Part shown: one piece after another, positions 2,171 through 27,147 of the stretch
Numbering within the stretch: the first letter of the stretch is position 1
How the letters are laid out: each line of letters starts with the position of its first letter
From: Candidatus Methylomirabilis oxygeniifera
Lineage (GTDB): Bacteria > Methylomirabilota > Methylomirabilia > Methylomirabilales > Methylomirabilaceae
DNA length: 32,000 nt
Direction: 5' to 3'
NCBI GenBank assembly: GCA_000091165.1
Contig: FP565575.1
Location: forward strand, 1,110,001-1,142,000
Translations under genes and position numbers: made by a program
Notes under the pieces: generated by a model
The model's input: the letters and a program-made list of their open reading frames with translations, nothing else
The model's database searches: none
Told to the model about the DNA's origin: nothing

Positions 2171-3310
2171 TTAAGATTCGATTCTCACAACTCCATATCG
2201 CCCTGCTCTGAAGATCCATGACGCAGGAGTTAATACGACTTTCGTCTTTAGGGACGCGTGCCATTGTCCGGCTCCGTTAGTGATCAACGGGACCAGTAGC
2301 CCGTACACGACGATATGAGAGAATACTCCCTCCCAAAGGACCACACTGAAAAACGCAAACGCAACGAAGAGCCCGACTGCTACAGGTCGAATCATGATCC
2401 CAGCAAGGATGACGGCTCCTGCGAGTGTTTCCACTACGGCCACCACGAGGACAAAGGTCTCCGGTGCCATCCCCATGGTAGGGACGTGGTGAAGATCGAG
2501 CACGCCCAGCATGAGGTTGGGTTGCGCGAATTTATATGCGAGCCCAAGATAGAGTATGTCGGCACCAACCAAGAGCCGCATCAGGCACTGTACCCGCTCG
2601 CGGGGCTGGCTTGCGAACCAGGCGCTGAGCGTGGTGGTGCCCGGAAAAGACGGGAGCGGCGCCGCATACGGTCCAGCTCCCTGGAACAACAGGTAGACCG
2701 CGGCCGCGCCAACCAGTCCGATGTAGGCGCACATGGCCTCGCCAAAGAGAAAGAGTCCCAGTAGTCCGAGGCCAAGAAGGGCGACGGCTGCACCCCTCAC
2801 ATAGATACCCAGCAACAAACAGACGGCGATTACGCCTTCGAGGACGGCCACCCAACTCCAGTTGCCAGGGAGCAAGCGCAACTCCAGGTCCGGTGCGCCA
2901 AGCACCGGGCTCTGCATGATCCCAGTGCCCAGTCGCGGCGCCAGCCCCAGGCTTGCCGTCCCCAGCATGATAAAGAGCGCGATGCGCAACGCCACCGGCG
3001 CATAGTCGCCATACGAGATGAGCCGGGCGCGCAGGCGTGAGGCGAGCGTTCGCGATGCGGTATATCGGTAAAGCAGCAAGCAGCCGACCAGACAGAGGGC
3101 CGCCGACAGGTAGATAGACAGGCTGGATGCGTTGAACTGAGTGAAGATTTCCGGCTTGGGTCTCGCGTTCCACTCCACAGCCTGTTCTGGCGTCAAGACC
3201 CAGAGTTCGTGGGCCATGACGCCAGACGCCCAGAGGAGCAGCGAGAGCACGACAATGAGAGACAGGATTAATTGAGCGGGAAAGGTGAGGGTCACGATGG
3301 TTCTCTTCAT
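2171..3310 (-). CDS. Polytopic integral membrane protein of unknown function
   Basis: The ORF is trimmed to the ATG at 3310 (MKRTIVTL...), preceded by AAAGGAGG. It has an N-terminal hydrophobic signal/anchor followed by multiple long hydrophobic segments. No diagnostic catalytic motif recognised. Confidence 0.75.
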   Translation of the reverse strand: MKRTIVTLTFPAQLILSLIVVLSLLLWASGVMAHELWVLTPEQAVEWNARPKPEIFTQFNASSLSIYLSAALCLVGCLLLYRYTASRTLASRLRARLISYGDYAPVALRIALFIMLGTASLGLAPRLGTGIMQSPVLGAPDLELRLLPGNWSWVAVLEGVIAVCLLLGIYVRGAAVALLGLGLLGLFLFGEAMCAYIGLVGAAAVYLLFQGAGPYAAPLPSFPGTTTLSAWFASQPRERVQCLMRLLVGADILYLGLAYKFAQPNLMLGVLDLHHVPTMGMAPETFVLVVAVVETLAGAVILAGIMIRPVAVGLFVAFAFFSVVLWEGVFSHIVVYGLLVPLITNGAGQWHASLKTKVVLTPASWIFRAGRYGVVRIES

Positions 3311-3371
3311 TTTAGGACCTCCTTTAGTTGAACTGTTTAGAAAAATCTTTGCCACGACAAGTATCCTCAAT

Positions 3372-3388
3372 AACAAGCGGCATGCCAA
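3372..3388 (-). promoter_or_regulatory. Sigma54-type promoter, copy 2, upstream of the membrane protein gene
   Basis: Minus strand reads TTGGCATGCCGCTTGTT, identical to copy 1, and lies 62 nt upstream of the ATG at 3310. Confidence 0.6.
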
Positions 3389-3495
3389 AACGGAAATCTC
3401 GCAGCAGGATTCTTTAACTATTTAATTCCAGAGGAGTTAAGGGATAGGCTAGGGCGGCAGAAGGAGGCGGTCGGATGCAAGAGGTGACTGTTACG

Positions 3496-3532
3496 GGAAA
3501 CGGGATATTTCAGTCGGTTTCACTTTGAAACA
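3496..3532 (-). promoter_or_regulatory. Upstream activator sequence, copy 2
   Basis: Plus strand reads GGAAACGGGATATTTCAGTCGGTTTCACTTTGAAACA. It lies 107 nt upstream of promoter copy 2. Confidence 0.6.
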
Positions 3533-3614
3533 AGAGCGAGCGGGGGGCGTCAGCGTCTGATCTGGTAGGCTTCTCGTGATAGGAAGGACAGTCCCACAAA
3601 CAGAAATTGGGATG

Positions 3615-3791: not shown

Positions 3792-5210
3792 TTATTCGTC
3801 TGAATCCACTCGCCGGGCACCCCAGGGAATCTGATAGGCCTTCATTCGGCGCCACAGTGTGGTGCGGCTGATCCCGAGGTCTTTGGCGACTAACGCGAGA
3901 TTACCGTTTCGCGACCGGAGTTGTTCTAGAATATGGTCTTTTTCAACCTGCGTCAGGGTCGGACTCCCCGCTGCGTGGGAAGGATCACCGGGTCTCGGCA
4001 GCCATTCGTCGAGATCGAGCCGCGACCCATTGCTGAGAAGGACCGCTCGCTCTATCAGATTCTGTAGCTCCCTGACGTTACCCGGGAAGTCATAGTCCAG
4101 CAGCCGCTGCATCGCCTCTTGGCTCAGTCCCATGACGGGCTTTTTCAGCTTCTTGCACTGTTTTTCCAAAAAATAGTCGACCAACAGGGGAACATCTTCT
4201 CTTCGTTCCCGTAAGGGAGGAGTTCTGATGGGAAACACACTCAGGCGGTAGTAGAGGTCCGCCCGGAAGGCGCCCTTTTTGACTTCTGATTCCAAGTCTC
4301 TATTGGTCGCCGCAACGATTCGGACATCCACCTGCCTGGATTCGGTCTCCCCGATCCGCCGCATCCTGCCATCCTGAAGCACCTGAAGCAGCTTCACCTG
4401 CATCGTGGGGCTCATTTCGCTGACCTCGTCCAGGAAGAGGGTCCCTCCATCCGCCACCTCGAAGAGCCCTTTCTTGTCCTGCACAGCCCCCGTAAAGGCC
4501 CCGCGTCGATGGCCAAATAGCTCACTTTCCAAAAGGGTCTCCGGGAGCGCGCCGCAGTTTTGCTCGATAAACAGCCTCCCTCGTCTAGGGCCACGATGGT
4601 GGAGGTGGTGGGCGATGACCCCTTTCCCTGTTCCTGTTTCTCCGGTGAGGAGGATCGTGGCGGAGCTGTCGATGACCTTCTCTATGAGATCGAAGAGCCG
4701 CCTCATAGCCGGGCCATGGCCGATGATGGTATCCGAACGGGGATCCTTTTCGACCTCCTGCTTCAGATACAGATTCTCCGTTTGCAGTCGTTCGTTGGCC
4801 GCCTGAAGCTCCTTGAGCAGCCGCTGATTCTCCATGGTCAGCTCATAGCTTTCGAAGGCGCGCTTGACGGTAATTTTCAACTCATTCCGATCCCACGGTT
4901 TAGTGATATATCGATAGATCCTCCCGGCATTGATGGCTCGGATAAGGGACGCGGTGTCGGTGTAACCCGTCAGGATCATCCGGATAGCCTGGGGACGCTT
5001 GGTAATGGATCGCTCCAGAAATTCGACGCCTGTCATCTCCGGCATCCGCTGATCCGCGATGATGAGGGCGATCTCCTGCCGGTCCAGGATCGTCAGTCCT
5101 TCAGCGCCACTGCCGGCCTGAAAGACATCATAGTCCTCCTCGAACGTAAGGGAGAGGGTGGTCAAGATATCGCGTTCGTCATCCACGATCAGCATCCCGT
5201 ATCGGTTCAC
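3792..5210 (-). CDS. Sigma54-dependent response regulator (NtrC family: REC + AAA+ sigma54-interaction domain + Fis-type HTH)
   Basis: REC domain (LIVDDERD...IIADQRMPEMTG), Walker A GETGTGKG, GAFTGA loop (RRGAFTGA) and C-terminal HTH (LALVAKDLGISRTTLWRRM). Start is GTG at 5210, or alternatively ATG at 5195. It begins 1 nt after the kinase stop. Confidence 0.95.
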   Translation of the reverse strand: MNRYGMLIVDDERDILTTLSLTFEEDYDVFQAGSGAEGLTILDRQEIALIIADQRMPEMTGVEFLERSITKRPQAIRMILTGYTDTASLIRAINAGRIYRYITKPWDRNELKITVKRAFESYELTMENQRLLKELQAANERLQTENLYLKQEVEKDPRSDTIIGHGPAMRRLFDLIEKVIDSSATILLTGETGTGKGVIAHHLHHRGPRRGRLFIEQNCGALPETLLESELFGHRRGAFTGAVQDKKGLFEVADGGTLFLDEVSEMSPTMQVKLLQVLQDGRMRRIGETESRQVDVRIVAATNRDLESEVKKGAFRADLYYRLSVFPIRTPPLRERREDVPLLVDYFLEKQCKKLKKPVMGLSQEAMQRLLDYDFPGNVRELQNLIERAVLLSNGSRLDLDEWLPRPGDPSHAAGSPTLTQVEKDHILEQLRSRNGNLALVAKDLGISRTTLWRRMKAYQIPWGARRVDSDE

Positions 5211-5211
5211 T

Positions 5212-7341
5212 TTATACCCCGCTCCACTTTACCGGAAGTTCAATGGTAAACTCCGTTCCCTGGCGATCTGGACTCGATACGCGGATGGTGCCGCCATGTT
5301 TTTGTATAATCCCATAGCTGATGCTGAGGCCCAGGCCCATCCCTTCCCCCACCTTCTTTGTGGTAAAGAAGGGATCAAAGATCTTCGACAGATTCGACTC
5401 AGGAATGCCGTGCCCGTTATCCCTGATGACGATGATGACCGTATCTCCATGGGAAGCCGTTCTGATCCAGACTTCTCCAGTCTCATGAATGGCTTGAGCG
5501 GCGTTGAGCAGCAGATTCATGAACACTTGATTGATCTGGCCAGGATGACATTCCACCTGAGGCAGGACTCCATACTCGCGATGGACAGTGATCCGATCTC
5601 TATACTCCTTTACAAGGAGGTTGAGGGTTATCTCAAGTCCTTCATGTAGATCGGCAGGCGCAGGATCGACATCATCCGCCCTGGCAAAGGTCCCGAGGTC
5701 CATGACAATTCTCTTTACCCGTTCTGTCCCCCGCTTGCAACTGGAAATCAACTCATCCAATGTATGAAGAGTCCGGTCGAGTCTGGCCCCTTTTTTCAGC
5801 TCTGCGAGATGCCGATAGGCGGGACTATCGGGCAGTTCGACCGTCTCATAGGCCTCAAGCACTCCTTTAAGGTTTAGAATATATTCGGCTATGAAATCGA
5901 TGTTACTATGGACGAAGCTGACGGGATTATTCAACTCATGAGCAACCCCCGCTACCAGAAATCCCAAAGAGGCCATCTTCTCCGTTTGGAGAAGCTCATT
6001 CTGGGTCTGGGCCAGCTCCTGGAGGGTCTTCTCCAACTCGTGATGCCCTTTTACCAGCTCTTCGTTTGTCGCAGCAAGTTGGGCGGTCCGCTCCTTGACC
6101 TTTTGGTCCAGCTCCCGGTTCATCGCCTCCAGGGCGAGACGTCGTTCCCGCTGGGCAGAGAAGACCTGAGCGATCAGATACCCGCCGTAGATCAGACCGA
6201 ACTGACCCGTGCCGGCGAAGACAGGAAGCCAAAGATTCCCTTTGACAAATAGCCCATATGCGACTACGAGAAAAAGCGCAGAAAGGCAGAGGAGCGCTCC
6301 GAGGGCCCAGAGCGGCTTGAGACGGAGGGCAATGACACTGCCGATCAGGGCCAAAAGAAAGAGGAGACTATACCGCACCCCTGAGGAGGGTTCGTGTACC
6401 ATCCGATCTGCCAAGAGGTTAGCGACGATCGTTGCATGGATCTCAACCCCGGCGGTGGGACCGCCTACGTGAAAGGAGAACGGAGTAGGGAAGACATCCG
6501 GAGAGGTTCGTTGCGGTTCCGGCGCCGCCTGGATGGCGCGGCCGATCAGGACAATCTTGTCGGAAAAGGTCCCCGGCGGAAGCATCCGATCAGCCTCGAG
6601 GGCCTGGTAGTAAGAGATCGTCTTGACGGTCCTTGGGGGACCAAAATAGTTGATCAGAATCGCCTTCGAGAGATCGGTCCGGATTCCATGCGGCTTCTGT
6701 CGTAGGTAGAACCTGACGATTTGATCGGAGAACGAGGGAAGGACGGAGGAGACGGGAAGGGGTCGTCTCACGGTCCCGTCAGGGTCGATGGGAAGGGTGG
6801 CGATTCCCACTGACGCGGCCGATCTGAAGGGTTCGATGGGATCGACAAGGATCGTCTGACGAAAGAGCGGATCAGCGGTGACGGACTGCTCGCTGGCGAG
6901 GACGACGTTTCCAGCCTCCCGAATGGCCCGTGCCAACGCCCGATCGTCCTCAGGCTGGGAAGGTTCTGCGAAGAGAATATCGAAGGCGATGACCCTGGCC
7001 CCCGCCTTCTTCAGGTGATCGATCAGGCGGGCATGAAGGCTCCGAGGCCAGGGCCACTGCTTCGAGATCTCGGCAAACGACGGCTCATCGATGGCGACAA
7101 CAACGACCTCAGGTGGAGGCGCCATGGCGCCACGGAGCATAAAAAGGAAGTCCAACCCTTTCAGCTCGAATAGGGAAAAGAGGGGGAGATTGGCTAGAAC
7201 GAGCATCACCGCAAAAGTCGGCATCACGATGAGGGCAGCTTGCAGCGCAGGCCACACTCGATCATTGCTGGCCACTAATATCCCCACATGGTCTACTCGA
7301 GTGAATGATGGCGCCCACATCACAGATGTGGGCGCCATCAT
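5212..7341 (-). CDS. CHASE2-domain sensor histidine kinase
   Basis: The N-terminal region is CHASE2-like ([10 protein letters not shown]...[29 protein letters not shown]), followed by TM segments and a coiled coil. Kinase motifs are the H-box [12 protein letters not shown]-box [10 protein letters not shown]1 DNGHGI and G2 GMGLGLSIS. The exact start is uncertain because there is no strong SD. Confidence 0.9.
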
Positions 7342-7849: not shown

Positions 7850-10800
7850 CTAAAACGCCACGGTCAACCGAAACAGGACCTGACGTTCTGGTGCTACCGT
7901 CGGACTACGAGGATCTGTATCCTGAAAGTGGAAGCGATTGTCGAACAGGTTTCTCACGTCGAGGGTGAGCAGGCCCCTTCGGTTAGGCAAGCGATAGCCG
8001 ATAGAAGCGTCAACGACCCAGAACCGATCGCTACCGGCCAGGACATCACCTGTAAGCCGATTCTGGAACTCTCCCTCCTGATCGACGTAGGTAGTTTTGA
8101 GCCGCGCCCGGAGGCCTGACGAGTGGAAGAAGCTCAATCCCAATGGAACCCGATGGGTATGGGTCATTGCTATTCCTTCCTCTCCAAACGCCACACGTCG
8201 CCTAAACCGTTCGTACTGATACTCGGCACTGATCGCAAGCCAGGCCCTTGGAGTCCAGTAGAGGTAGGCCCGTCCCAGGTCCTCTTCCCAGTCCCTGTCT
8301 CGATATTTCCCTTCCCCTGGTGCGAAGCCCGGCGCGTCGGTATCCCGCCGCGAAAACTCCGCCCCTCCAAACAGGGCCGTGGAGAGCTTCTGATCGACGG
8401 CAACACCGTACCGCCACGCTTCTGTGCCGTTCACGTCGTCAAAGAACTGATTGAAGCCGGCCACCTGGGTCGGCTCGATCGTTTGATCCGACAGGAGGGA
8501 TCGCTTCAGGACCCTGAAGACAGCGGCCCGCAGGGTTGTATCGGGAAACGGGTTCCAGGTTACCCCGAACTTCGGGTTGAACTGGTTTCGCTCGAGAACA
8601 GAAAGGACCTTTCGATCATCCTTGTTTCGGGTCGTAATCTTGAAGAAATCGGCGCTCCCGCCCAAGGTCCACGTAACATTATGCGGAAAGTTGATCAGGG
8701 AGTAGAGATAAAGATTGGTATGGCGATTATCATCTTCTGTCAGTGCTAAGGGGAATGACAGGAAACTGGTTACGTCCGTACGATCGGCGTCGAAATGACC
8801 GGCCCCGCTGATCAGATGTAATCGTTTCCAACGGAACAAATACTGAATCTCTCCCATGAAGCCGTCCGTGTCCGTCAAGAGGTCAAACCCCTTGACCATG
8901 AAGTTACGGGTGTCAAAATCAGCGTTTCGGTAGATGCCGGATGCGATAAGGTGAGAGTCGGGTGTAAAGGCATGATGAAGACCCAGTCGTATCGATCGGG
9001 TCCGATCATCCTGTTTTTGATCCGGAAAGAAATTGTTCCGATCGAATCGCAGCGGCAGGTCGCCTCGCTCAAAATCCTTGTATCTGAACTCTGCCTGGAC
9101 GCTGGTACTTGGCGAGAGGCTCATCTGGACAAAAGCGTTGTAGATGTCCTGGTTCTGGTCGTTATTTTTTCGGAATCCGTCGGTCTCCTGATGGAACTGG
9201 CCAAGACTATAGGAAACGTTTCCATGGACACCAGAGAGGACCACTTCATCACCAAGTGTGTCCTTTTCTCCAGCGGTTCCCGACGCCAGGAGGCTCACCC
9301 GATCGCGGACAAATAGAGGATTAAACTCATTCAACGAGGGATCTTGCGGCCCGGCACTGTCTAGAATAAAGAGATTGCTTTCCGCCAGTTGCGGCTGCAC
9401 CGGGGTAATGCTGATCGGTTGAAGAAGCTGGGACTGGAGCAGCTCACTCACCCTGGCGACCTCATGGCGAGGTAGGGCAGCATAGGAGTCAGACAGGAAC
9501 CGATGGGCCGAGTAGTTAGATGGATCCTCAATGGCTGCCTTCCATCCTTCAACTAACGCAAGCTGTTGGAATCCCAGCTCATTATACACTCTGGCAAGAG
9601 TCGCGCCCCGCGCCGCGAGATCCTGATCCATCAACAGGCGTGATCGGTAAACCGCACGATTGTCATTCAGCTCGATCGATCGCTGTAGATCCTGCATCGC
9701 CTCTACTGGACGGTTGACGCTTTGCTTGCGAATGGCGTCATAGAGCCATGGGGTGGGATCGTTCGGATCCAGTGTCTTGGCAATCGCCAAGGGATCCATC
9801 TCTAACGGATAACGTTTCACCTCGTAGAGCGCTTTCCCTAGATAGCTCCAGAATAAGGCAACTTTGGGCTCCAGGAGGGTAGCCATCCACATCTCCTGCA
9901 CTGCCTCCTCTGTCTTATTCTGCCTAAAAAGCGCGAGGCCGCGGCCGAGGTGAGGCTCTCCGCGCGTGGAATCCTGCTCAATCGCCTGGCCAAAGGCCGA
10001 GAGCGCTTCCTGGACCTTCCCCTGGGTCAACATGAGGAAGCCCCATGTGCTGGTGATAAGGGGATCGTGGGGTGCCCTTTGACGGGCCTCCTCAACCAGA
10101 CTTAATGCCTCGGAGAGCCTTCCGAGGCCAAAGAGGAGGCGGCTTACCTGGATCATGGCTACAGGGTTGTCCGGCTCCAACTCCAGTGCCTTCCTGGCGG
10201 CCTGAAGCGCTTCCTCCAGACGGAACTCGGCCTGCTTGACCAGGCTCAGGTCGAGATAGGCCGAGGCGGAGGACGGATTGGCGAGGATCGCCTGCAGCGC
10301 CGCTTGCTGCGCTACCCCCTTCTCGTTCCGAACCAGGGCAATATTGGAGCGAAGACCATGAGCCGGCGCGTAGCCTGGATCGAGGGCCACGGCATGCTCT
10401 AACTCCTGGAGCGCCTTGCCCACCCGGCCCTGAATGAGGTAGAGAAGAGCCGTCTGAGTCGGCGGCTGTGGGGAGGATGGGAAACGACTTTTGGCCTCAG
10501 CAACGACCTCTTCCATCTCATCAAAGCGATTAAGTCGATAGAGGGCGTTGGCCTGTCCCATAAGGGCTGAAAGGGTAGGAGGCGTCGCTTGCCGAAACGT
10601 TCTCAAGGCCTCCTCGGTCCTCCCTTCCACCAGGTAGACCCACCCCAGACCTGTGAGCGCCCTCGGGCTCCCCGGATCAAGGGTTAGGGCTTTCTCAAAT
10701 CCTCTTCGTGCCTCGACCGGTTTGCCCAGATCGAAGAGGATCTCGCCCAGCGTGACCGTCGACTCCGAATCCGCCAGTCTCGAAGCCGCCCTTCGTTCGG

Positions 10801-11512
10801 CGTCGACCAACCGTTCCGGGAGAAGATTCGGCGCGACGCCGGTCAGAGGATAATCCCGGAAGCCGACAATCCCGGGGTAGTAAAGGGACCATTGGACCGC
10901 ATCGATGGGCCTCAGGAGGATGGTCTTGCTTGGGGGTTCGCCTACCCTGGCCGTGGCCGCCTCTCCCGCCCTCACCATGACACCCCCCTGAGGATTGCGA
11001 AACTCAACCACCCCCTCGAGTACGGCAAGACGGGATTCATTGCCTGGATCGACCGAGAGGTCAAACTCCGTTCCCCGGATCGTTGCCGTCACCGCCGGCG
11101 TTCGAATCTGCAAGGGCCTGCCGCGACTTCGACTCCAGACCTCTCCCTTCAGCAGGTTGAGGATGGTCTGCATGGGGCCCGCCGCCGCACGGGTCGCGCT
11201 CCCGGGGGGCGACATGACCTCTGTAATCTCCAGGGTGCTGTTGGAATTGACCTTGATCTGTACTTCGTCCGAGAGGAGGATGGCCGCTCGACTTCCCGGA
11301 CCCGTCCTCACCACATCTCCAGGCATGAGGACGTGCCGGAGCGCTACCGGCTGCCACTGCTGGACCCGGAAGATCTCAACCCTTCCCACGACGCTCACAA
11401 TTCTCCCTGCTTCTTGGGCCGTTGCAACACTGATGCTCAACATAAGCCAGACGATCGAGCAGAGGAGGATGGGAAGGACTCCGCGCTGGGTTGGGACTTG
11501 GCGACAATTCAT
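7850..11512 (-). CDS. Secreted FecR-domain + TPR-repeat + C-terminal outer-membrane beta-barrel fusion protein (1220 aa)
   Basis: Signal peptide (LLCSIVWLMLSISVATA/QEAG). FecR-like N-domain (GRIVSVVGRVEI...PGDVVRTGPGSRAAILL...VKVNSNSTLEI). About 450 aa of TPR-like repeats follow (e.g. ALTLDPGSPRAL, ALELEPDNPVA, AIEQDSTRGEPHL). The C-terminal ~450 aa are rich in alternating beta-strand patterns and end in the OMP signature LFRLTVAF. GGGGAGG SD lies 9 nt upstream. Confidence 0.85.
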   Translation of the reverse strand: MNCRQVPTQRGVLPILLCSIVWLMLSISVATAQEAGRIVSVVGRVEIFRVQQWQPVALRHVLMPGDVVRTGPGSRAAILLSDEVQIKVNSNSTLEITEVMSPPGSATRAAAGPMQTILNLLKGEVWSRSRGRPLQIRTPAVTATIRGTEFDLSVDPGNESRLAVLEGVVEFRNPQGGVMVRAGEAATARVGEPPSKTILLRPIDAVQWSLYYPGIVGFRDYPLTGVAPNLLPERLVDAERRAASRLADSESTVTLGEILFDLGKPVEARRGFEKALTLDPGSPRALTGLGWVYLVEGRTEEALRTFRQATPPTLSALMGQANALYRLNRFDEMEEVVAEAKSRFPSSPQPPTQTALLYLIQGRVGKALQELEHAVALDPGYAPAHGLRSNIALVRNEKGVAQQAALQAILANPSSASAYLDLSLVKQAEFRLEEALQAARKALELEPDNPVAMIQVSRLLFGLGRLSEALSLVEEARQRAPHDPLITSTWGFLMLTQGKVQEALSAFGQAIEQDSTRGEPHLGRGLALFRQNKTEEAVQEMWMATLLEPKVALFWSYLGKALYEVKRYPLEMDPLAIAKTLDPNDPTPWLYDAIRKQSVNRPVEAMQDLQRSIELNDNRAVYRSRLLMDQDLAARGATLARVYNELGFQQLALVEGWKAAIEDPSNYSAHRFLSDSYAALPRHEVARVSELLQSQLLQPISITPVQPQLAESNLFILDSAGPQDPSLNEFNPLFVRDRVSLLASGTAGEKDTLGDEVVLSGVHGNVSYSLGQFHQETDGFRKNNDQNQDIYNAFVQMSLSPSTSVQAEFRYKDFERGDLPLRFDRNNFFPDQKQDDRTRSIRLGLHHAFTPDSHLIASGIYRNADFDTRNFMVKGFDLLTDTDGFMGEIQYLFRWKRLHLISGAGHFDADRTDVTSFLSFPLALTEDDNRHTNLYLYSLINFPHNVTWTLGGSADFFKITTRNKDDRKVLSVLERNQFNPKFGVTWNPFPDTTLRAAVFRVLKRSLLSDQTIEPTQVAGFNQFFDDVNGTEAWRYGVAVDQKLSTALFGGAEFSRRDTDAPGFAPGEGKYRDRDWEEDLGRAYLYWTPRAWLAISAEYQYERFRRRVAFGEEGIAMTHTHRVPLGLSFFHSSGLRARLKTTYVDQEGEFQNRLTGDVLAGSDRFWVVDASIGYRLPNRRGLLTLDVRNLFDNRFHFQDTDPRSPTVAPERQVLFRLTVAF

Positions 11513-11667: not shown

Positions 11668-11937
11668 TCAAAGCAGGGACGCTATTTGGGACTCGTGAGA
11701 AAAGGTTAAAGCGCGTGCGCGCGCGGCTGCCGCCGTGCGCGTCCCCACCCCAAGCTTCTCGAAAATATGCTCCAGGTGCTTTTGTACCGTCCGTGGACTG
11801 GTATCGAGAATCTCTCCAATCTCAGCATTGGTCTTCCCATCGGTTACCCAAGTGAGTACCTCCACCTCCCGGCGCGTCAGACCGAGGCGTTCAGAGAAGA
11901 TGTTGTCGTGAAACCATCTCGTGCTGATCCTGTCCAT
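11668..11937 (-). CDS. Stand-alone LuxR/GerE-type HTH transcriptional regulator (89 aa)
   Basis: LTRREVEVLTWVTDGKTNAEIGEILDTSPRTVQKHLEHIFEKLGV matches the LuxR C-terminal HTH. The ATG at 11937 has a GAGGAGG SD 5 nt upstream. The longer track ORF start at 12003 lacks an SD. Confidence 0.85.
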   Translation of the reverse strand: MDRISTRWFHDNIFSERLGLTRREVEVLTWVTDGKTNAEIGEILDTSPRTVQKHLEHIFEKLGVGTRTAAAARARALTFSHESQIASLL

Positions 11938-12102
11938 AGCTACCTCCTCTGATTCGGTTATCAGGTTTACTCTCGGCACGTGAACCGGGTGCTTGGTCGC
12001 CATTGAACAACTCAGGGCTGCCGCGTCTCAGCATCTTCTGACCGGAGGGTGTAGTCAACGTCGGACTTGACTCGTCGTCAAGTCACGGCAACTGTATCCA
12101 TT

Positions 12103-12119
12103 AACAAGGGACATGCCAA
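12103..12119 (-). promoter_or_regulatory. Sigma54-type promoter, copy 3, upstream of the LuxR-type gene (and possibly the whole sensor operon)
   Basis: Minus strand reads TTGGCATGTCCCTTGTT. It lies 166 nt upstream of the ATG at 11937. Confidence 0.55.
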
Positions 12120-12227
12120 AACGACATCCCCCTTTCAGATTCCTCTATCTCTGCATTTTCATGACGCCTTGTGACTATTTCATTTCCAGAGTGAGGAGGG
12201 GATCAGCCACAAGAGAGCCCTGCAACA

Positions 12228-12264
12228 TGAAACATAATGTTTCACGCGGTTTCACTCTGAAACA
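12228..12264 (-). promoter_or_regulatory. Upstream activator sequence, copy 3
   Basis: Plus strand reads TGAAACATAATGTTTCACGCGGTTTCACTCTGAAACA. It lies 108 nt upstream of promoter copy 3. Confidence 0.6.
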
Positions 12265-12574
12265 TCGGCGCTATAGGGATGTTGATAGCTCATCCGGTGA
12301 ACGCTGACCGTTCCGATCCAACCCGCACAGCCATTACGAGGACGAGTTCTATTTCGGAGTAACCGTAGTGGACGGGTAGGGTGAATTCGGTAAGTGTCGA
12401 GCAACAAGCAAAGAGGGGAGGGAAGCAGACAGCAGGGGTAACGGGCAGAATCCCAGTGGTGTGAGTCGCCCTGTCGGTGTACACACGGAATCTGACAGGC
12501 TTTCATCTGGAGCCACAAGACGTCAGCAGGCGAGCATTACTGGACTATCGGCGGTCTGCCGATCGAGCTGTGAC

Positions 12575-13790
12575 TTAGAACCGCCAGGTGAGCTTGGCCA
12601 AGACGCTGCGCTGGACCTCTGTCGAATTGAAAGGATCTCCGATGCCTATCTTTCCGAACCCCGGATGCCGGTCGTCCAGGAGATTCTGGCCGATCACGCC
12701 CAGATCCAGTGCGCTCGTGGGACGACGGTAGAGGTATTATCCATGGCGTCGATCGTCCCGCGCGTGTCAAAACCCCAGATGATATCGTGAGCCGCGCCCA
12801 AACCGAACCGGGGCTGGACATTGAGGTCGACCGTATCGCGAGCCTCTCGGATAATCTGGCGCCGGTCCGTTCTGTCATAGTAAAACTGTACTCGGAACTC
12901 CGATCCGTCGATCAGGCGCCGCCGCCATCGCGTCAGAATGTTGCCGCCCGCGAAATCGTCTCTGCTGTCACGCGTCGATGCAAAGGGAGGCGCGAGCTGG
13001 GGGGCAGTCGTCGTCTCGTTGAAATTACCCGTGTAGATGTTCTCCATGGATGGTGACCGAATCGCGCGCTGAGGCGTCCCAGTCGATCCGGAAGCCGCCA
13101 CGATACAATTCCCAACTATCGGCGGCATCTCGATCGTTTGCGGTGACGAAGTGGTCGCGATCGAAATACTTCGCATAGGCCCGGTAGTGCGCCGCCTCTG
13201 ACAGCTTCCCGCCGCAACGCAGTCCGACAAACCCCTGTTCCTCATTGCCGATCCCACCTTCAAGGTAGCCGCCCTGGGTCGTGCCGGCGTGCTTGGTAAT
13301 GATATTAATGACACCGTTGATGGCATTGGCACCCCAGAGCGTTCCGCCGGGCCCGCGGATCACCTCGATCCGGTCGATATCCTCCAGTAGGGTATCCTGC
13401 ACATCCCAGAAGGTCCCGGCAAACAGCGGCGTGTAGACGGTCCGGCCGTCGATTAGGACCAGCAGCTTATCTGCGAAAAGGCCGTTGAATCCGCGAGCAG
13501 AGATGGTCCACTTGTTGGCGCTGAACCGTGCGACCTGGATACCAGGCGCCACGCGTAACGCCTCAGGAATGCTGGTGACGCCGGATCGGCGGATCTCCTC
13601 GCCAGTAATAACGTAAGCGGCTGCAGGACTACTCTAGAGCGGTTCTTCCTTGATGAGCGCTGAGATGAGTTCTGCTCTCCGGGCGTATCGCTTGAGCCTC
13701 ACGCCATCTACCCCGCTTCCCGGGCCAGGTTCGGCCCGACATACTACAAGGGTAAGACCAACGGTTAGAACCGGACAGGCTGTCAGAATC
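12575..13790 (-). pseudogene. Degraded TonB-dependent receptor (plug domain, barrel fragments, C-terminal TonB-dependent-receptor signature)
   Basis: The plug is AAAYVITGEEIRRSGVTSIPEALRVAPGIQVAR...IEVIRGPGGTLWGANAINGVINIITK. It is preceded by an in-frame TAG at 13634-13636 and a signal-like stretch with no start codon. The reading frame changes at least twice (ORF fragments 13025..13552, 12694..13332, then a third frame). The third frame ends NLLDDRHPGFG...AKLTWRF* at 12575. Only about 1.2 kb remains. Confidence 0.75.
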
Positions 13791-14022: not shown

Positions 14023-14367
14023 TTATTTCGTGTGCTGCAAGGCCTCGTTAATCTGCGCGAGGAGGTCTCGGAGATGAGAGAGCTCCGCCTCTATGGTTGC
14101 TCGACCGAACGGCTCGTCCCGCAAGATCGCTTCAACCACATCATCGCGTGACATCAAAGGACCGCTCATCACCTGCACCTTGTAGTCGGGACCCACGCGC
14201 TGTCGCTCGATCACCAATCGCTTCAGATGTTCTATGGTTAATCGTTCAAGAGGGTAGATCTCCTCGGCGCGGGAGATGATCTCATCGAACGTGATGAACT
14301 TGTTCCGATGGGGATCATAACATAGGGGCTTCTTACGGTCCGGGCCTTGAATGTTCGGCATTGCCAT
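14023..14367 (-). CDS. Hypothetical 114-aa protein, paralog of the N-terminal domain of the upstream 375-aa protein
   Basis: AGAGGAGAG SD lies upstream of the ATG at 14367. A hand alignment to residues 42-108 of the neighbouring protein is ungapped, with 18 of 67 residues identical. Shared blocks are IER, PD[FY]K, S[KR]DD[IV][IV], FG[KR] and KKPL. Confidence 0.7.
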   Translation of the reverse strand: MAMPNIQGPDRKKPLCYDPHRNKFITFDEIISRAEEIYPLERLTIEHLKRLVIERQRVGPDYKVQVMSGPLMSRDDVVEAILRDEPFGRATIEAELSHLRDLLAQINEALQHTK

Positions 14368-14427
14368 TTGTCGCTCTCCTCTTTTATGCTAGTTGCAAGT
14401 GGTGAACGGATTCGCCTTGCAGAGTAT

Positions 14428-14454
14428 AGCACCGCCCGCCCTGCGGGCGGTGCT
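14428..14454 (-). other. Perfect 12-bp GC-rich hairpin between the 375-aa gene and its small paralog
   Basis: AGCACCGCCCGC-cct-GCGGGCGGTGCT. No U-tract follows on either strand, so it looks more like an intercistronic stabiliser or attenuator than a classic terminator. Confidence 0.4.
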
Positions 14455-14507
14455 ACGTTCGTCCGTTTCCACCCAACCGCGCCTGTCTTGAGTTTTCTGT
14501 AGAGAGT

Positions 14508-15635
14508 TCAGTCTTCGAGTACACCTGCCCCGAGCAGAGCGGTCTCCATCTCGAGTGGTCGGATCGGGAAACAGATCTTGACCCAGCGGTACGGTGTAAT
14601 GGTGGCTGTGGTGGAGCCGTGCAATCTCATGTGGTCTCGATCAAAGGTCAACCATGCGGCTGCCGCGGTGTTCGGCACCTGCGCAATGGCTGCATTGAAT
14701 GCCTGCTGTGCGGCGTTGAATGCCTGCCCGGCAGTCGCTCCCGCCGCCATCTGCAAGTCAAATGTGGCATCCGACTGAAGGAAGAGCAGGAACTCGTTGA
14801 CCGGTGTTGACGAGTTGTCCCACACGAACGTGAAGTTTTCATCGTAGCCGCAGTAGGCCTTCGCACCATTGGTTACAGTATTGGGTCCGAGATCCCGGGC
14901 GGTACGACAACTCAGAAAATGGAGTGTCTTGTCTTTAACCTCAGTAGGATCGTAGTGACTGACTCGGAGGATCGGATCACCGGAATGGCCTGTATACACG
15001 TCATAATTGCCATGGCCGACGCCGCCGATGTACGTTGTCAAGACGTTCTTGGCCACCGGGACAAAGTTTGCTCGCACGTCGTTTGTACCGGTCAGCGCAA
15101 CAACGGTAAAGCCGCGCGTTTGGAATTGGGAATGCACGTTTGCAATGCGCCAGTTTGCTATCGGCGTAGTGACACCGTCGGTGGTGTTCTCGCAGAAAAG
15201 CGCTCGGTTGCTTACACGCAGCCAGATGCAGTGCTTGACCGGCTTCCATGGAGGCGGAATCTTGGTCGGTTTTGAAGGTGCCTGTGGCCATGACGGTTTC
15301 TTACCGTCCATCAGGCTGGTGGCGAGTTCCGAGCAGTAGCCCATCTCGGTCCTGGTGGCCAGCTTACCGAATTCAGTTCCTTTTTTTATGTGATCGATAA
15401 TGTCGTCTTTCGAGTAGACGCCGAGTTGAATAATACCGAGCTTGAAGTCCGGCTCCAGGGAGTAGCGTTCAATGGCGAGCTTGGCCTGTAGTTCCTCGCT
15501 CAATGTGAACAGTGATCCCATGCCCAGTGAAGGTGTTTCCGCAACCTGCTGGACCGTCAGAAACCGCCCCTCCGAAGTAATCAACAGCGGTTTCTTCGCA
15601 GCGAATGGCTTGAACTCCAATTGTCGGATTTTCAT
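14508..15635 (-). CDS. Hypothetical 375-aa protein with a C-terminal putative clan CD (gingipain/C25-like) cysteine peptidase domain
   Basis: The ATG at 15635 is preceded by an AAGGAG SD. The motif TTYIGGVGHGNYDVYTGH is followed, 35 residues after the GHG His, by LHFLSCRTA and then NGAKAYCGY. This matches the strand-HG ... strand-C ... GAxAxxG layout of clan CD peptidases. No signal peptide. The family assignment is inference only. Confidence 0.8.
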   Translation of the reverse strand: MKIRQLEFKPFAAKKPLLITSEGRFLTVQQVAETPSLGMGSLFTLSEELQAKLAIERYSLEPDFKLGIIQLGVYSKDDIIDHIKKGTEFGKLATRTEMGYCSELATSLMDGKKPSWPQAPSKPTKIPPPWKPVKHCIWLRVSNRALFCENTTDGVTTPIANWRIANVHSQFQTRGFTVVALTGTNDVRANFVPVAKNVLTTYIGGVGHGNYDVYTGHSGDPILRVSHYDPTEVKDKTLHFLSCRTARDLGPNTVTNGAKAYCGYDENFTFVWDNSSTPVNEFLLFLQSDATFDLQMAAGATAGQAFNAAQQAFNAAIAQVPNTAAAAWLTFDRDHMRLHGSTTATITPYRWVKICFPIRPLEMETALLGAGVLED

Positions 15636-15871
15636 GTCGTTTCTCCTTTTTGCGACCACCGCCTCTGCAATGAAGAGGCGAGCCGATGGTGGTATGTCGT
15701 TTCTCTTGTCTGCGCGCCTCGCATCCTATGTTATCTTCGGGTGGTTTGGGGGTAGCTGAAACGAGTAGTTTTCATTTGATCAGACTTTTACCCGCTATCT
15801 AAAATGGTTCTCACAGTGCACCACCTCCTTTTGATGAACAACGAATCGAGCATCAGGATAACCAGGTGATT

Positions 15872-15888
15872 AACAAGCCGCGTGCCAA
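15872..15888 (-). promoter_or_regulatory. Sigma54-type promoter, copy 4, upstream of the 375-aa gene
   Basis: Minus strand reads TTGGCACGCGGCTTGTT. It lies 237 nt upstream of the ATG at 15635. Confidence 0.6.
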
Positions 15889-15995
15889 TACAAACGAAAC
15901 ACCGCAGCTTTTCGTAATTCCGCGTTTCTATTGTTCCCGATCGGAGCGCTTCATCGGGGGCAACGGCTGATTCGATGCATCTGGAGAATTCCAGA

Positions 15996-16032
15996 TGAAA
16001 CGCGATGTTCCAAGGGATTCCATTCTGAAACA
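15996..16032 (-). promoter_or_regulatory. Upstream activator sequence, copy 4
   Basis: Plus strand reads TGAAACGCGATGTTCCAAGGGATTCCATTCTGAAACA. It lies 107 nt upstream of promoter copy 4 and is the most diverged copy. Confidence 0.5.
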
Positions 16033-16276
16033 CCAACAACGAGACATGCAGTGGTCAACGGCCGTGGGTCCACGCTGAAAGCTGAAGGAGCGCGACCGGA
16101 CCGACCTTCAACTAATTTGCCGTCGGTCTCCAGTCTGGGGCCGATAGATGAGTAAAGCGCGATGAAGGCTGCTTTCTGACACGGTGTAATGCTTGACAAC
16201 CCGCCTGAAATCGCCTACGGTTGTCAGAGATAATCAGGGTAGAGGCGCTATACGCTTGCGGGTCAAGGAGGGTGGC

Positions 16277-17332
16277 ATGGCGGAGAGGACGGCAGAACGC
16301 GGGGACGGGAAAGAGCGGGAGCGCGCGCTGGATCTGGCAATCGCCCAGATTGAAAAACTGTACGGCAAAGGCTCCATCATGAGGATGGGCACTTCCGGCG
16401 CCCTCGTGCCTATTGCGGCGATTTCCACGGGCTCGCTGGAGTTGGACGCGGCGCTGGGAGTCGGGGGCGTGCCACGGGGACGCATCATCGAGATCTTCGG
16501 GCCGGAGTCTTCCGGAAAAACGACATTAGCTCTGCACATCATCGCTGAGGCGCAGCGGGTGGGCGGTTCTGCCGCTTTTGTCGATGCCGAGCACGCGCTT
16601 GACGCCGCCTATGCCAGATCCCTGGGAGTGAAGATCGACGATGTGCTGATCTCTCAACCGGATACGGGGGAGCAGGCTCTCGAGATTACTGAAGTCCTGG
16701 TTCGGAGCGGGGCCATTGATGTCGTTGTGATCGACTCGGTTGCCGCCCTCGTCCCCCGGGCCGAGATCGAGGGCGAGATGGGTGAACCGACGATGGGCCT
16801 TCAGGCCCGCCTGATGTCTCAGGCGCTGCGAAAGCTGACGGCAGCCATCAGCAAGTCGAAGACCTGCGTGATCTTCATCAACCAGCTTCGAGAGAAGATC
16901 GGGGTCATGTTCGGCAACCCCGAGACCACGACCGGAGGCCGCGCATTAAAGTTTTACTCGTCGGTTCGACTCGATATCAGGAGAATCTCAAGTATTAAAG
17001 AAGGGGAGAATGTGGTGGGGTCGCGCGTCAAGGTTAAGGTGGTCAAGAACAAGGTTGCGCCCCCCTTCAAAGAGGCAGAGTTCGACCTCATCTACGGCGA
17101 GGGGATCTCTCGAACCGGAGGCATATTGGACCTTGGCGTCGAGCACAAGATTATTGAAAAGAGCGGATCGTGGTTTTCCTACACCGGGGAGCGAATTGGC
17201 CAGGGTCGGGAGAACGCGAAGCGCTTCTTGCAGGAGAACGCCGCGCTCTGCAACGAAATCGAAGTGAAAGTGCGTGCGGCCCTGGGGCTGACCGCCGCCG
17301 TTGAGACGGCTGTATCGTCGCAGGCGCGGTAG
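16277..17332 (+). CDS. recA: Recombinase RecA
   Basis: [22 protein letters not shown], Walker [13 protein letters not shown], and [37 protein letters not shown]. The ATG at 16277 is preceded by an AAGGAGGG SD. Confidence 0.97.
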
Positions 17333-17338
17333 CATCGC

Positions 17339-17452
17339 AGGCAGATAGACTGAAGCCTGAAGAATTTTAGGGGTAGGAACCGAGAAGATCGTGAATGGCT
17401 TGAGTTGTACCTTGCGAGATACGATATGACCTTCAGTCTTCAGCCTAAACAC
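17339..17452 (+). repeat. Intergenic ~115-nt repeat element, copy A (between recA and pilT)
   Basis: The 5' block AGGCAGATAGACTGAAGCCTGAAGAATTTTAGGGGTAGG and the 3' block GTCTTCAGCCTAAACAC are both shared with the copy at 27031-27147. An internal 13-bp stem pairs 17350-17362 with 17431-17443 (1 mismatch). Confidence 0.55.
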
Positions 17453-26087: not shown

Positions 26088-26116
26088 TTGACATGCTTGA
26101 CCGCTCAAGCTATATT
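26088..26116 (+). promoter_or_regulatory. Sigma70-type promoter TTGACA-17-TATATT driving a leaderless transposase mRNA
   Basis: The -35 TTGACA is at 26088-26093, followed by a 17-nt spacer and the -10 TATATT at 26111-26116. The ATG at 26123 is 7 nt after the -10. This is the same layout as the promoter at 21806. Confidence 0.5.
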
Positions 26117-26122
26117 ATAAGT

Positions 26123-26953
26123 ATGAACAGATTGAGTAAGGACAAGCGAGCACAAGTGGTAGCCGCCCTAGTCGAGGGCAACTCGATTCGGTCCACCGTC
26201 CGCATGACGGGCGTCGCCAAAGGCACGGTCTTGAAGCTACTGGCCGATCTCGGAGCGGCCTGTAGTGAATATCAGCGGCAAGTCCTTGTGAATCTTCGTT
26301 GCAAGCGGATTCAGTGTGATGAGATCTGGTCCTTCTGTTATGCCAAGGAAAAGAACGTCCCTGAGCACATGAAGGGCAAACCCGGAGTCGGCGACGTGTG
26401 GACCTGGACGGCTATGGATGCTGACTCAAAGCTAATGATCTCATGGTTGGTAGGCGAACGTGATGCAGGATACGCCACTGAGTTTATCAATGACCTCGCC
26501 GCACGGCTCGCCACTCGGGTTCAACTCACCACGGATGGTCTGAAGGTTTATCTGGAGGCTATAGAGGGTGCTTTTGGGGCCGACATTGATTATGCCCAAC
26601 TGGTGAAACTGTTTGGAGAGGCACCCGAGCAAGAGAAGCGGTACAGCCCGTCTCAGTGCACCGGATGCCAGAAGAGGCGCATTGATGGGAGTCCTGATCC
26701 TCGGCACGTCTCGACATCGTTTGTGGAGCGACAGAATTTAACCATGCGAATGAGCATGAGAAGGTTCACACGGCTTACCAATGCGTTTTCAAAGAAGGTC
26801 GAAAACCTGGAAGCCGCCGTAGCCCTTCACTTCATGTGGTACAACTTCGGGAGAATCCACCAAACCCTTCGAGTGACCCCGGCGATGCAAGCAGGAGTTT
26901 CCGACCATGTATGGACAATCGAGGAGATTTTAGACTTATTGGATTCAAACTGA
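26123..26953 (+). CDS. IS1-family DDE transposase (single fused ORF)
   Basis: N-terminal HTH (GNSIRSTVRMTGVAKGTVLKLL). The DDE context is CDEIWSF, TTDGLKVY and FVERQNLTMRMSMRRFTRLTNAFSKK. This parallels the IS1 InsB motifs DEMW / TDGW / [24 protein letters not shown]. Confidence 0.9.
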   Translation: MNRLSKDKRAQVVAALVEGNSIRSTVRMTGVAKGTVLKLLADLGAACSEYQRQVLVNLRCKRIQCDEIWSFCYAKEKNVPEHMKGKPGVGDVWTWTAMDADSKLMISWLVGERDAGYATEFINDLAARLATRVQLTTDGLKVYLEAIEGAFGADIDYAQLVKLFGEAPEQEKRYSPSQCTGCQKRRIDGSPDPRHVSTSFVERQNLTMRMSMRRFTRLTNAFSKKVENLEAAVALHFMWYNFGRIHQTLRVTPAMQAGVSDHVWTIEEILDLLDSN

Positions 26954-26970: not shown

Positions 26971-27030
26971 GTTTCCCTTGCAGATCGCCGCCGGCCATGA
27001 TAGAAATGAAGAGAATGACCGTCACGACAC

Positions 27031-27147
27031 AGGCAGATAGACTGAAGGCTGAAGGCTTTTAGGGGTAAGGCGGTGATCACACAGCACTTCCGGCACGTGA
27101 TTTGCGCACGACGAGGTAATATATTGTCTTCAACTTTTGGCCTACAC
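27031..27147 (+). repeat. Intergenic ~115-nt repeat element, copy B (upstream of psd)
   Basis: In AGGCAGATAGACTGAAGGCTGAAGGCTTTTAGGGGTAAGG, 34 of the first 37 nt are identical to 17339-17375. The interior (CGAGGTAATATAT vs CGAGATACGATAT) and the 3' block (GTCTTCAAC..CCTACAC) are also related. Confidence 0.55.

Follow-up and report, generated by a model that had tools for sequence, protein, structure and literature searches.

Two adjacent genes of Candidatus Methylomirabilis oxygeniifera, located in a 32,000-nt stretch of contig FP565575.1 (positions 1,110,001 to 1,142,000; the whole stretch is called the window, and positions are counted from its first letter), probably encode one self-controlling protease complex that forms inside the cell. 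Both genes, and all parts of them described below, lie on the minus strand. The large gene (14508..15635, an open reading frame [ORF] from ATG) encodes a 375-aa protein consisting of an N-type module in cis (N), a Pro-rich linker, and a caspase-fold catalytic domain (cat), and the small gene (14023..14367) is an ORF encoding a free-standing N-type module of 114 aa (N'). In this complex, the small protein most likely serves as a second subunit and not as a simple decoy. To the reading as a whole, in which N-cat and N' form a cytoplasmic complex of a clan CD-like Cys-His enzyme whose N modules gate the protease, we assign a probability of roughly 0.45. By its fold and dyad, the enzyme belongs to a known kind (clan CD). 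No description of the cat family, its partner module, or their split, fused, and duplicated logic was found in the annotation libraries or the literature searched.

Predicted fold, catalytic dyad, and duplicated N-type module

An AAGGAG Shine-Dalgarno sequence is located 7 nt 5' of the ATG of the large gene, and homologs begin at the same, nearly invariant M1-K2 in an alignment of 96 large-protein homologs (A1). A GAGGAG Shine-Dalgarno sequence is found ahead of the start of the small gene. The large protein is a 100% match to a "hypothetical protein" of Candidatus Methylomirabilis oxygeniifera, and its cat domain occupies residues 144–340 (14616..15206). An AlphaFold (AF2) model of the large protein built with A1 reached a predicted local distance difference test (pLDDT) score of 92.9 and a predicted template modeling (pTM) score of 0.91; a single-sequence model, without the alignment, had a pLDDT of 36.6. 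In a Foldseek comparison with PDB, the nine best matches were all clan CD enzymes, as were most of the matches at E ≤ 0.01. The top match was the CHAT protease of SAVED-CHAT (8tl0, E = 8.5e-5); gingipain R/RgpB (1cvr and 4ief) matched at E = 1.5e-4, and caspase-4 (7wr0) and legumain (6l4y) were also among the nine best. A C11 protease (6nag) and separase (5fby) ranked 11th and 17th, respectively, and unrelated pyridoxal phosphate-enzyme matches with a root-mean-square deviation >11 Å were interspersed from rank 10 on. Caspase, metacaspase, and clostripain proteins were matched in the viral structure library BFVD. The strands and helices of cat in the model run in the order b1(144–149)-a1-b2-a2-b3(200–206)-His208...b4(237–241)-Cys243, an order that, with His after b3 and Cys after b4, is canonical for clan CD. 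The initial annotation had assigned the C-terminal half to clan CD from its motifs, and the model agrees with this placement: the fold of the C-terminal domain, as modeled, is that of clan CD (caspase/gingipain/legumain).

The motifs on which that assignment was based lie where they had been described, with GGVGHG starting at residue 204, FLSC at 240, and NGAKAYCGY at 256, and the predicted catalytic His208 (codon 15012..15014, in GGVGHG) and Cys243 (codon 14907..14909, in HFLSC) are 35 residues apart. Each directly follows a central strand (200–206 and 237–241, respectively). His208 was invariant in A1, and across the wider family the position was His in 333 of 335 catalytic domains and was followed by Gly in 335 of 336; the position of Cys243 was Cys in all 335. 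A second His (H239), four residues ahead of Cys, was kept in 319/335, and a beta-hairpin is inserted after the catalytic His. The dyad layout proposed earlier thus holds for His and Cys. Cys262 of the third motif was not conserved and is Ala in the family consensus; the adjoining Gly263 was invariant and Tyr264 nearly so in A1. From the fold and dyad, the catalytic domain is most probably a Cys-His hydrolase of the endopeptidase type. An acidic residue (Glu149 in the window protein) ends strand b1 in 297 of 310 domains. In caspases, the S1-forming loop begins at the end of this strand, and by analogy the conserved Glu/Asp suggests that the enzyme prefers basic P1 residues.

At the sequence level, a Pfam scan of both proteins gave no match to E ≤ 10 except a sub-threshold GH67C, and hence none to Peptidase_C25, CHAT (PF12770), or other clan CD families. 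Neither protein had a significant match in NCBIfam, PADLOC, or PHROGs, and PDB sequence searches with the single sequence and three profiles returned nothing or noise (RuvB-like proteins, E > 0.1). No signal peptide, hydrophobic N terminus, or transmembrane segment was found in the large or the small protein, the maximum 19-residue Kyte-Doolittle means being 1.01 and 0.65, respectively; the lack of a signal peptide in both proteins had been noted before. The C-terminal 35 residues of the large protein contain no Ig-like or type IX secretion system (T9SS) domain according to Pfam and the model. The earlier term "gingipain-like" is therefore apt for the fold, but not for the family, as there is neither a Peptidase_C25 match nor a signal peptide. 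Membership of C25 was rejected on sequence, secretion signals, and domain content (an N module of ca. 100 aa and no T9SS domain). Membership of CHAT PF12770 was not supported by sequence either, though SAVED-CHAT was the best fold match.

The small protein had been proposed to be a paralog of the N-terminal domain of the large protein, and profile comparison confirmed this. BLASTP aligned residues 14–104 of the large protein with 12–102 of the small protein (24/92 identities, E = 4e-9), and hhalign of A1 against an alignment of 36 small-protein homologs (A2) gave a probability of 97.8% and E = 8e-13 over 98 columns. The homologous region corresponds to residues 12–110 of the large protein (15306..15602), which are also homologous to partners encoded separately upstream of cat in relatives. 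Pro16, Arg57, and Gly90 were the only residues invariant in cis, trans (N'), and split N modules; in the model, Arg57 lies at the end of a helix. N' was relaxed at positions common to cis-N and split-N modules (E/Q61, P62, G72, and E97). N modules were strongly conserved overall, and the small protein was conserved over its whole length with no variable core (A2). No Pfam match was obtained for nine N-module proteins (E ≤ 5), and no PDB sequence match with profile A6. Between N and cat, the Pro/Lys-rich linker (residues 111–143; 15207..15305) is the least conserved segment, with a mean pairwise identity of 0.41 versus 0.53 for N and 0.67 for cat, and its position coincides with the break point in split relatives, as judged from profile match ranges.

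Conservation of the pair and the split and fused forms of its family

We found 226 homologs of the large protein, nearly constant in length (ca. 375 aa) and with 54–81% identity, and 40 homologs of the small protein. To locate the cassette, one genome per GTDB species was scanned, and neighbours were tested by hidden Markov model search of six-frame ORFs. This yielded 39 loci in >10 phyla, the hosts including Planctomycetota, Bacteroidota, Chloroflexota, Ignavibacteriota, Acidobacteriota, Verrucomicrobiota, Zixibacteria, Sumerlaeota, Fermentibacterota, and others; among the Bacteroidota are cultured Algoriphagus species and Chryseobacterium caseinilyticum. Of the 42 loci extending far enough, 41 had the small paralog immediately downstream and in the same orientation, with L040 as the sole true exception. 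In 33 loci, the mean identity to the window proteins was 0.47 for the cis N module, 0.61 for cat, and 0.45 for the small protein. The identities of N, cat, and N' correlated across loci (r 0.80–0.93), indicating that the three parts are inherited together, and N' diverged at the same rate as the cis module. Two loci showed local irregularities: a partial and a full small-paralog ORF lie downstream in L008 (5305–6058; duplication or frameshift), and ca. 700 bp are inserted between the large and small genes in L024 (1297–1997). A phage origin was rejected, as only 2 weak matches were found in 2.9 million viral contigs.

The genes around the pair varied from locus to locus. At the fused-family loci, a TonB-dependent receptor gene was the sole recurring neighbour (8 loci), sensor histidine kinases, a sigma-54 regulator, and Peptidase_C1 occurred occasionally, and no conserved candidate substrate gene adjoining the pair was found.

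An exhaustive profile search showed that this cassette belongs to a far larger family, with 1,370 representative clusters (50% identity) containing cat, 565 of them at E ≤ 1e-10. Most of the clusters are proteins of ca. 205–230 aa that match profile positions ca. 145–340 only, and these stand-alone relatives, the PPC-bearing P0197 aside, had no significant Pfam domain or name. In a sample of 80 metagenomic loci of stand-alone cat genes (split loci), 76 had an N-type module of ca. 110–140 aa encoded by a separate gene immediately upstream on the same strand. The cis-N profile matched these split N partners with better scores (to 1e-18) than the small-protein profile did (to 5e-9). Accordingly, the large protein of the window has the appearance of the two split genes joined into one, with the small gene downstream as a more diverged extra copy. 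When architectures were counted in the best 150 representatives of the 1,370 clusters, 118 were cat alone, 18 N-cat, 9 N alone, and 3 cat-N-N, with one protein each of cat-N and N-cat-cat.

Some members carry further domains. P0165, one of the 18 N-cat proteins, has an additional N-terminal metallo-beta-lactamase (MBL) domain (MBL-N-cat; L131, 4001–6409), and the small paralog is encoded downstream of it too. A homolog of this MBL domain (26% identity over 370 aa, E = 4e-12) is encoded directly upstream of the pair in L004 (8552–9916); a metallo-beta-lactamase-fold protein is thus an occasional third partner. P0197, counted among the 118 proteins with cat alone, carries two C-terminal PPC domains (cat-PPC-PPC), and an N-type gene overlaps its start. 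Separately, a protein of ca. 560–600 aa with a signal peptide was encoded directly before or after the N and cat pair in 48 of the 80 split loci (L046–L125), for example in L067 (1729–3531) and L093 (4663–6348). This secreted protein of ca. 600 aa had no match in Pfam, NCBIfam, or PDB and was absent from the fused loci; its recurrence may reflect synteny among related soil bacteria.

Two of the cat-N-N relatives (455 aa) are followed by a YydG-like radical S-adenosylmethionine (SAM) gene and a gene for a 76–77-aa precursor of the Os1348/NHLP clan (Pfam Frankia_peptide), in L126 (1487–4188) and L127 (506–3218), and the third cat-N-N gene is located near a B12-radical SAM gene. The cat-N-N loci are possibly a new type of cluster for peptides synthesized by ribosomes and modified post-translationally (RiPPs), having a leader peptidase or cyclase of the caspase fold. 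Radical SAM genes and NHLP-type peptides were found in none of the ca. 43 fused-family or the 80 split-family loci, and with no RiPP genes at either kind of locus, a RiPP link for the family of the window protein itself was rejected.

The arrangements described above follow the pattern of an obligate subunit, with two N modules per cat: N is separately encoded upstream in split loci, N modules are fused C-terminally in others, and N' accompanies the fused form in 41/42 loci. Such a pattern differs from that of the optional competitor of a classical propeptide. The independent fusions N-cat, cat-N, cat-N-N, and MBL-N-cat argue, on Rosetta-stone grounds, that the parts interact physically and that each cat goes with two N modules. 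The repeated finding of two N modules per cat, together with fusions in both orders, is evidence of a classic kind for parts acting as one complex. The pTM of 0.91 indicates a defined packing of N and cat. Judged by co-occurrence in the sequences, the N module appears to be an obligate partner subunit, presumably in a physical complex with cat.

Expression signals and surroundings of the pair in the window

A GC-rich stem-loop (14427..14455, minus strand) lies between the large and small genes. The perfect 12-bp hairpin reported there by the initial annotation was found again (14428–14439 paired with 14443–14454, loop AGG), and RNAfold extended it to 14 bp. The 140-nt spacer had a folding energy of -53.8 kcal/mol (z = -3.7). 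No U tract follows the window hairpin, and terminator prediction called none; some hairpins of Bacteroidota loci are followed by T runs. Homologous spacers had a median z of -3.6 against shuffles, with z < -2 in 25/33 loci, and their longest helix averaged 13.9 bp versus 8.7 bp in shuffles. Perfect stems of at least 10 bp occurred in eight other loci, and 50 shuffles per spacer never exceeded 8 bp. Structure is therefore kept across loci without sequence conservation of the spacer. The hairpin may act as a partial terminator or stabilise 3' ends and so uncouple the amounts in which the two products are made.

Upstream of the large gene, a sigma-54 type -24/-12 promoter-like element TGGCACGCGGCTTGT (15873..15887, minus strand; a pattern match with 1 mismatch) lies ca. 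240 nt 5' of the ATG, and upstream activator-type repeats TGTTTCAGAATGGAATCCCTTGGAACATCGCGTTTCAT (15995..16032, minus strand) lie beyond it. The latter align with three other copies in the window, and the pair had indeed been described as standing behind the fourth copy of a sigma-54 module. The four copies (1650–1850, 3346–3546, 12077–12277, and 15860–16060, all minus strand) were identified by aligning the upstream regions; all have TGTTTCA...TGAAAC-type repeats and, ca. 110 nt downstream, an invariant TTGGCA[CT]G-N4-CTTGTTA. They precede a calpain-family protease gene (174–1346), a gene for a 405-aa protein (2171–3388), a LuxR-type (LuxR/GerE) gene (11668–12003), and the large gene, respectively. 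The 405-aa protein had no family match and is unrelated to the large protein. Between the modules are genes for a sigma-54-activating (NtrC-type) response regulator (3792–5210), a CHASE2 histidine kinase (5212–7341), and a FecR-TPR-TonB-barrel protein of 1220 aa (7850–11512). From these sequence features, expression of the pair in Methylomirabilis appears to depend on the sigma-54 promoter module, and the four modules look like one regulon that includes two unrelated cysteine protease genes. The element was not present upstream of homologs in other phyla. This wiring is therefore local to this genome, and sigma-54 control was rejected as a family-wide feature.

The translation-initiation region of the large gene (GAGAAACGACAT, 15634–15665) is repeated 60 nt upstream (15694–15725) with 75% identity and without the ATG; together with the leader of ca. 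240 nt, this repeat hints at a structured or regulatory 5' untranslated region. Directly 3' of the small gene, a TonB-dependent receptor gene is apparently split into two overlapping ORFs (12694–13552, minus strand), with the Plug domain in 13025–13552 and a further fragment in 12694–13332. It is probably a frameshifted pseudogene. Intact TonB-dependent receptor genes are located 3' of the pair in 7 other loci (Algoriphagus, Ignavibacteriaceae, and Flavobacteriaceae). Elsewhere in the window, a 38-nt direct repeat (92% identical) occurs at 17338–17375, just past recA (16193–17332), and at 27030–27067, in the gap after the ORF 26093–26953. It may be a repeated intergenic element.

Role of the N-type modules and comparison with known systems

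In the mechanism that we favour, the N copy fused to the N terminus of the enzyme would be packed against cat, and the diverged second copy N', translated from the next cistron, would join as a further subunit. The N-type modules would hold the protease latent until a signal removes or rearranges them, and an acidic S1 pocket (Glu149/Asp153) may be occupied by the invariant Arg57 in the manner of a pseudo-substrate. Owing to the stem-loop between the cistrons, N' would be made in a different amount from N-cat, and the operon would be switched on by the sigma-54 module that it has in common with the genes for the calpain-like protease, the LuxR-type regulator, and the 405-aa protein. Gating is favoured because latency in clan CD enzymes is typically imposed by accessory domains at the N or C terminus, because an intracellular protease needs such control, because a simple pseudo-substrate lock would result if an invariant Arg faced a conserved acidic S1, and because the SpeB-Spi pair provides a precedent for a propeptide homolog encoded beside its protease. 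The inhibitory N- or C-terminal prodomains of gingipain (PDB 4ief) and legumain are established, and the proposed gating would parallel both these and SpeB-Spi. We infer the gating role, along with the Arg/Lys specificity and the role of the hairpin, from these features.

Several points weigh against this reading. If N' were purely an inhibitor, it should be made in excess, but its gene comes after that of the enzyme and behind a hairpin. Small partner domains that are either discrete or fused are just as typical of substrate-recognition modules, such as B1/B2 of lasso peptide systems (PMC5067487), and the strong conservation of the N modules may also fit substrate recognition. The occurrence of cat-N-N beside a radical SAM gene and an NHLP-clan RiPP precursor favours substrate handling at those loci. 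Peptidase activity itself is deduced from the fold and the dyad, and neither protein matched a defence protein in PADLOC-DB 2.0 to E ≤ 1.

The main rival explanation, which we regard as possible but doubtful, is accordingly that the N modules are substrate-recognition or delivery domains resembling RiPP recognition elements (RREs), with N and N' forming a binding clamp for a peptidase that processes a single specific peptide or protein. A module that is discrete upstream, or fused at either end in one or two copies, would mirror the split and fused lasso system of B1 (RRE) and B2 (Cys protease) (PMC5067487), and the radical SAM and precursor genes at the cat-N-N loci, as well as the high conservation of N, would suit such a role. 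However, radical SAM genes and NHLP-type peptides are missing from the fused and split loci searched, no conserved candidate substrate gene adjoins the pair, and the N module has no sequence similarity to PqqD/RRE or other Pfam or PDB entries. In the model, moreover, the order of its strands and helices is unlike that of the canonical RRE of textbooks.

The initial annotation had suggested a prodomain with an inhibitor or decoy. In this less likely reading, which we now consider distinctly improbable, N would be a classical cleavable propeptide and the free paralog a competing decoy or trans-inhibitor that captures the activated enzyme, as Spi does for SpeB or the CARD-only proteins for caspase-1. 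A paralog of the enzyme's own N-terminal domain does lie immediately downstream, as in SpeB-Spi (PMC2873492), and a site for autoprocessing could reside in the Lys-rich linker, provided that P1 is basic. However, for most of the superfamily, the N module is at no stage covalently linked to cat, so that cleavage cannot be its general mode of action. The C-terminal fusions with two N modules point to joint action and not to competition, N' is not a faithful mimic of the cis domain because it is relaxed at the four positions named above, and the free copy is almost never lost.

It is very unlikely that the catalytic domain is a transpeptidase, ligase, cyclase, or other acyl-transfer enzyme to which the N modules present an acceptor or donor. 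Legumain-type ligases and GPI8 are acyl-transfer enzymes of clan CD, asparaginyl endopeptidase/ligase structures (6l4y and 6lko) were among the Foldseek matches, and some relatives have a RiPP context; true proteases nevertheless ranked higher among the fold matches, one relative has PPC pre-peptidase domains typical of peptidases, and no sign of a ligation substrate was seen in the window. Hardly credible is the idea that the small protein, or the N module generally, is a physiological substrate or pro-protein cleaved to release an active fragment: adjacent protease-substrate pairs are textbook features of other caspase-fold systems and the N modules have invariant Lys/Arg residues, but the small protein is conserved over its full length, the fused forms would be enzyme-substrate fusions in both orientations, and the invariant Arg57 ends a predicted helix.

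Returning to the favoured gating of the protease by its N modules, this could be extended further. The pair would then be the fused form of a widespread two-component switch, made up of a caspase-fold protease and a lock or sensor of ca. 100 aa, which would be toxin-antitoxin-like or abortive-response-like and wired to sigma-54 and CHASE2. In such a switch, a dangerous intracellular protease would stay latent under the N-type modules and would be fired when these are lost, modified, or titrated; the Methylomirabilis system would be wired into a sigma-54/CHASE2 two-component regulon together with the calpain-like protease. We consider this extension unlikely. If true, it would amount to an undescribed programmed-proteolysis system of >1,300 protein clusters. 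Eukaryotic cell death is executed by caspase-fold proteases, which increasingly turn up as effectors of bacterial immunity as well, and the present work adds a large bacterial caspase-fold family (1,370 clusters) that the annotation libraries tested do not recognise, bringing its own previously undescribed partner domain and a split, fused, and duplicated genetic logic. A controlling N module would represent a new way in which bacteria restrain an intracellular cysteine protease or aim a protease at its substrate. For Methylomirabilis, the data point to a sigma-54 regulon in which two unrelated cysteine protease genes are driven by copies of a single promoter module. Since cultured bacteria (Algoriphagus and Chryseobacterium) are among the hosts of the family, it is directly testable.

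Among known systems, the closest in structure are the clan CD families (gingipain R of C25, CHAT of SAVED-CHAT, caspases of C14, legumain of C13, and clostripain-like C11), which have the same alpha/beta fold (Foldseek E 8.5e-5 to 6e-3). As in these enzymes, His-Gly follows one central strand and Ser-Cys the next, at a spacing of 35 residues here and ca. 33 in RgpB, and clan CD families rely on an accessory pro- or regulatory domain for the control of their activity. Unlike these families, the present one has no membership detectable at the sequence level, a partner module without a detectable relative, a beta-hairpin insert after His, and a second conserved His four residues before Cys. It further differs from gingipain in being cytoplasmic, with no signal peptide and no T9SS C-terminal domain, and in having an N module of ca. 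100 aa versus a prodomain of ca. 200 aa.

In Streptococcus pyogenes, Spi is a propeptide-analogue inhibitor encoded beside its protease SpeB (Kagawa et al. 2005, as cited in PMC2873492). The present pair likewise has a free, adjacent, and co-oriented homolog of the protease's N-terminal region, and SpeB and Spi are described in PMC2873492 as co-transcribed. However, SpeB belongs to clan CA (C10), is secreted, and has a propeptide that is cleaved off, whereas the fold here is of clan CD, the protein is intracellular, and the module is usually separate in relatives. In staphopain-staphostatin operons, a Cys protease gene is followed by the gene of a small cytoplasmic partner on one transcript (PMC2873492). 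The gene order is alike, but staphostatin forms a lipocalin-like barrel that bears no relation to any domain of the protease itself, and staphopain is secreted.

The lasso B protein, consisting of B1 (RRE) and B2 (cysteine protease), occurs in split or fused form (PMC5067487), and here, too, a partner of ca. 100 aa is encoded by a discrete adjacent gene or fused to a Cys protease, the two states interconverting in evolution. In contrast, the fold of B2 is transglutaminase-like (clan CA) and that of B1 a PqqD-like winged helix, and the precursor and cyclase genes that are always adjacent in lasso systems are not adjacent in the window or in the fused and split loci.

Lastly, the CARD of caspase-1 has counterparts in the CARD-only proteins ICEBERG, COP, and INCA, which are encoded in adjacent genes and modulate activation. 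In both cases, the N-terminal domain of a caspase-fold protease has been duplicated into an adjacent free-standing gene. Whereas CARD is flexible and acts through oligomeric platforms, the N module is predicted to be packed on cat (pTM 0.91), and unlike the CARD-only genes, the free copy of the N module is near-universally retained.

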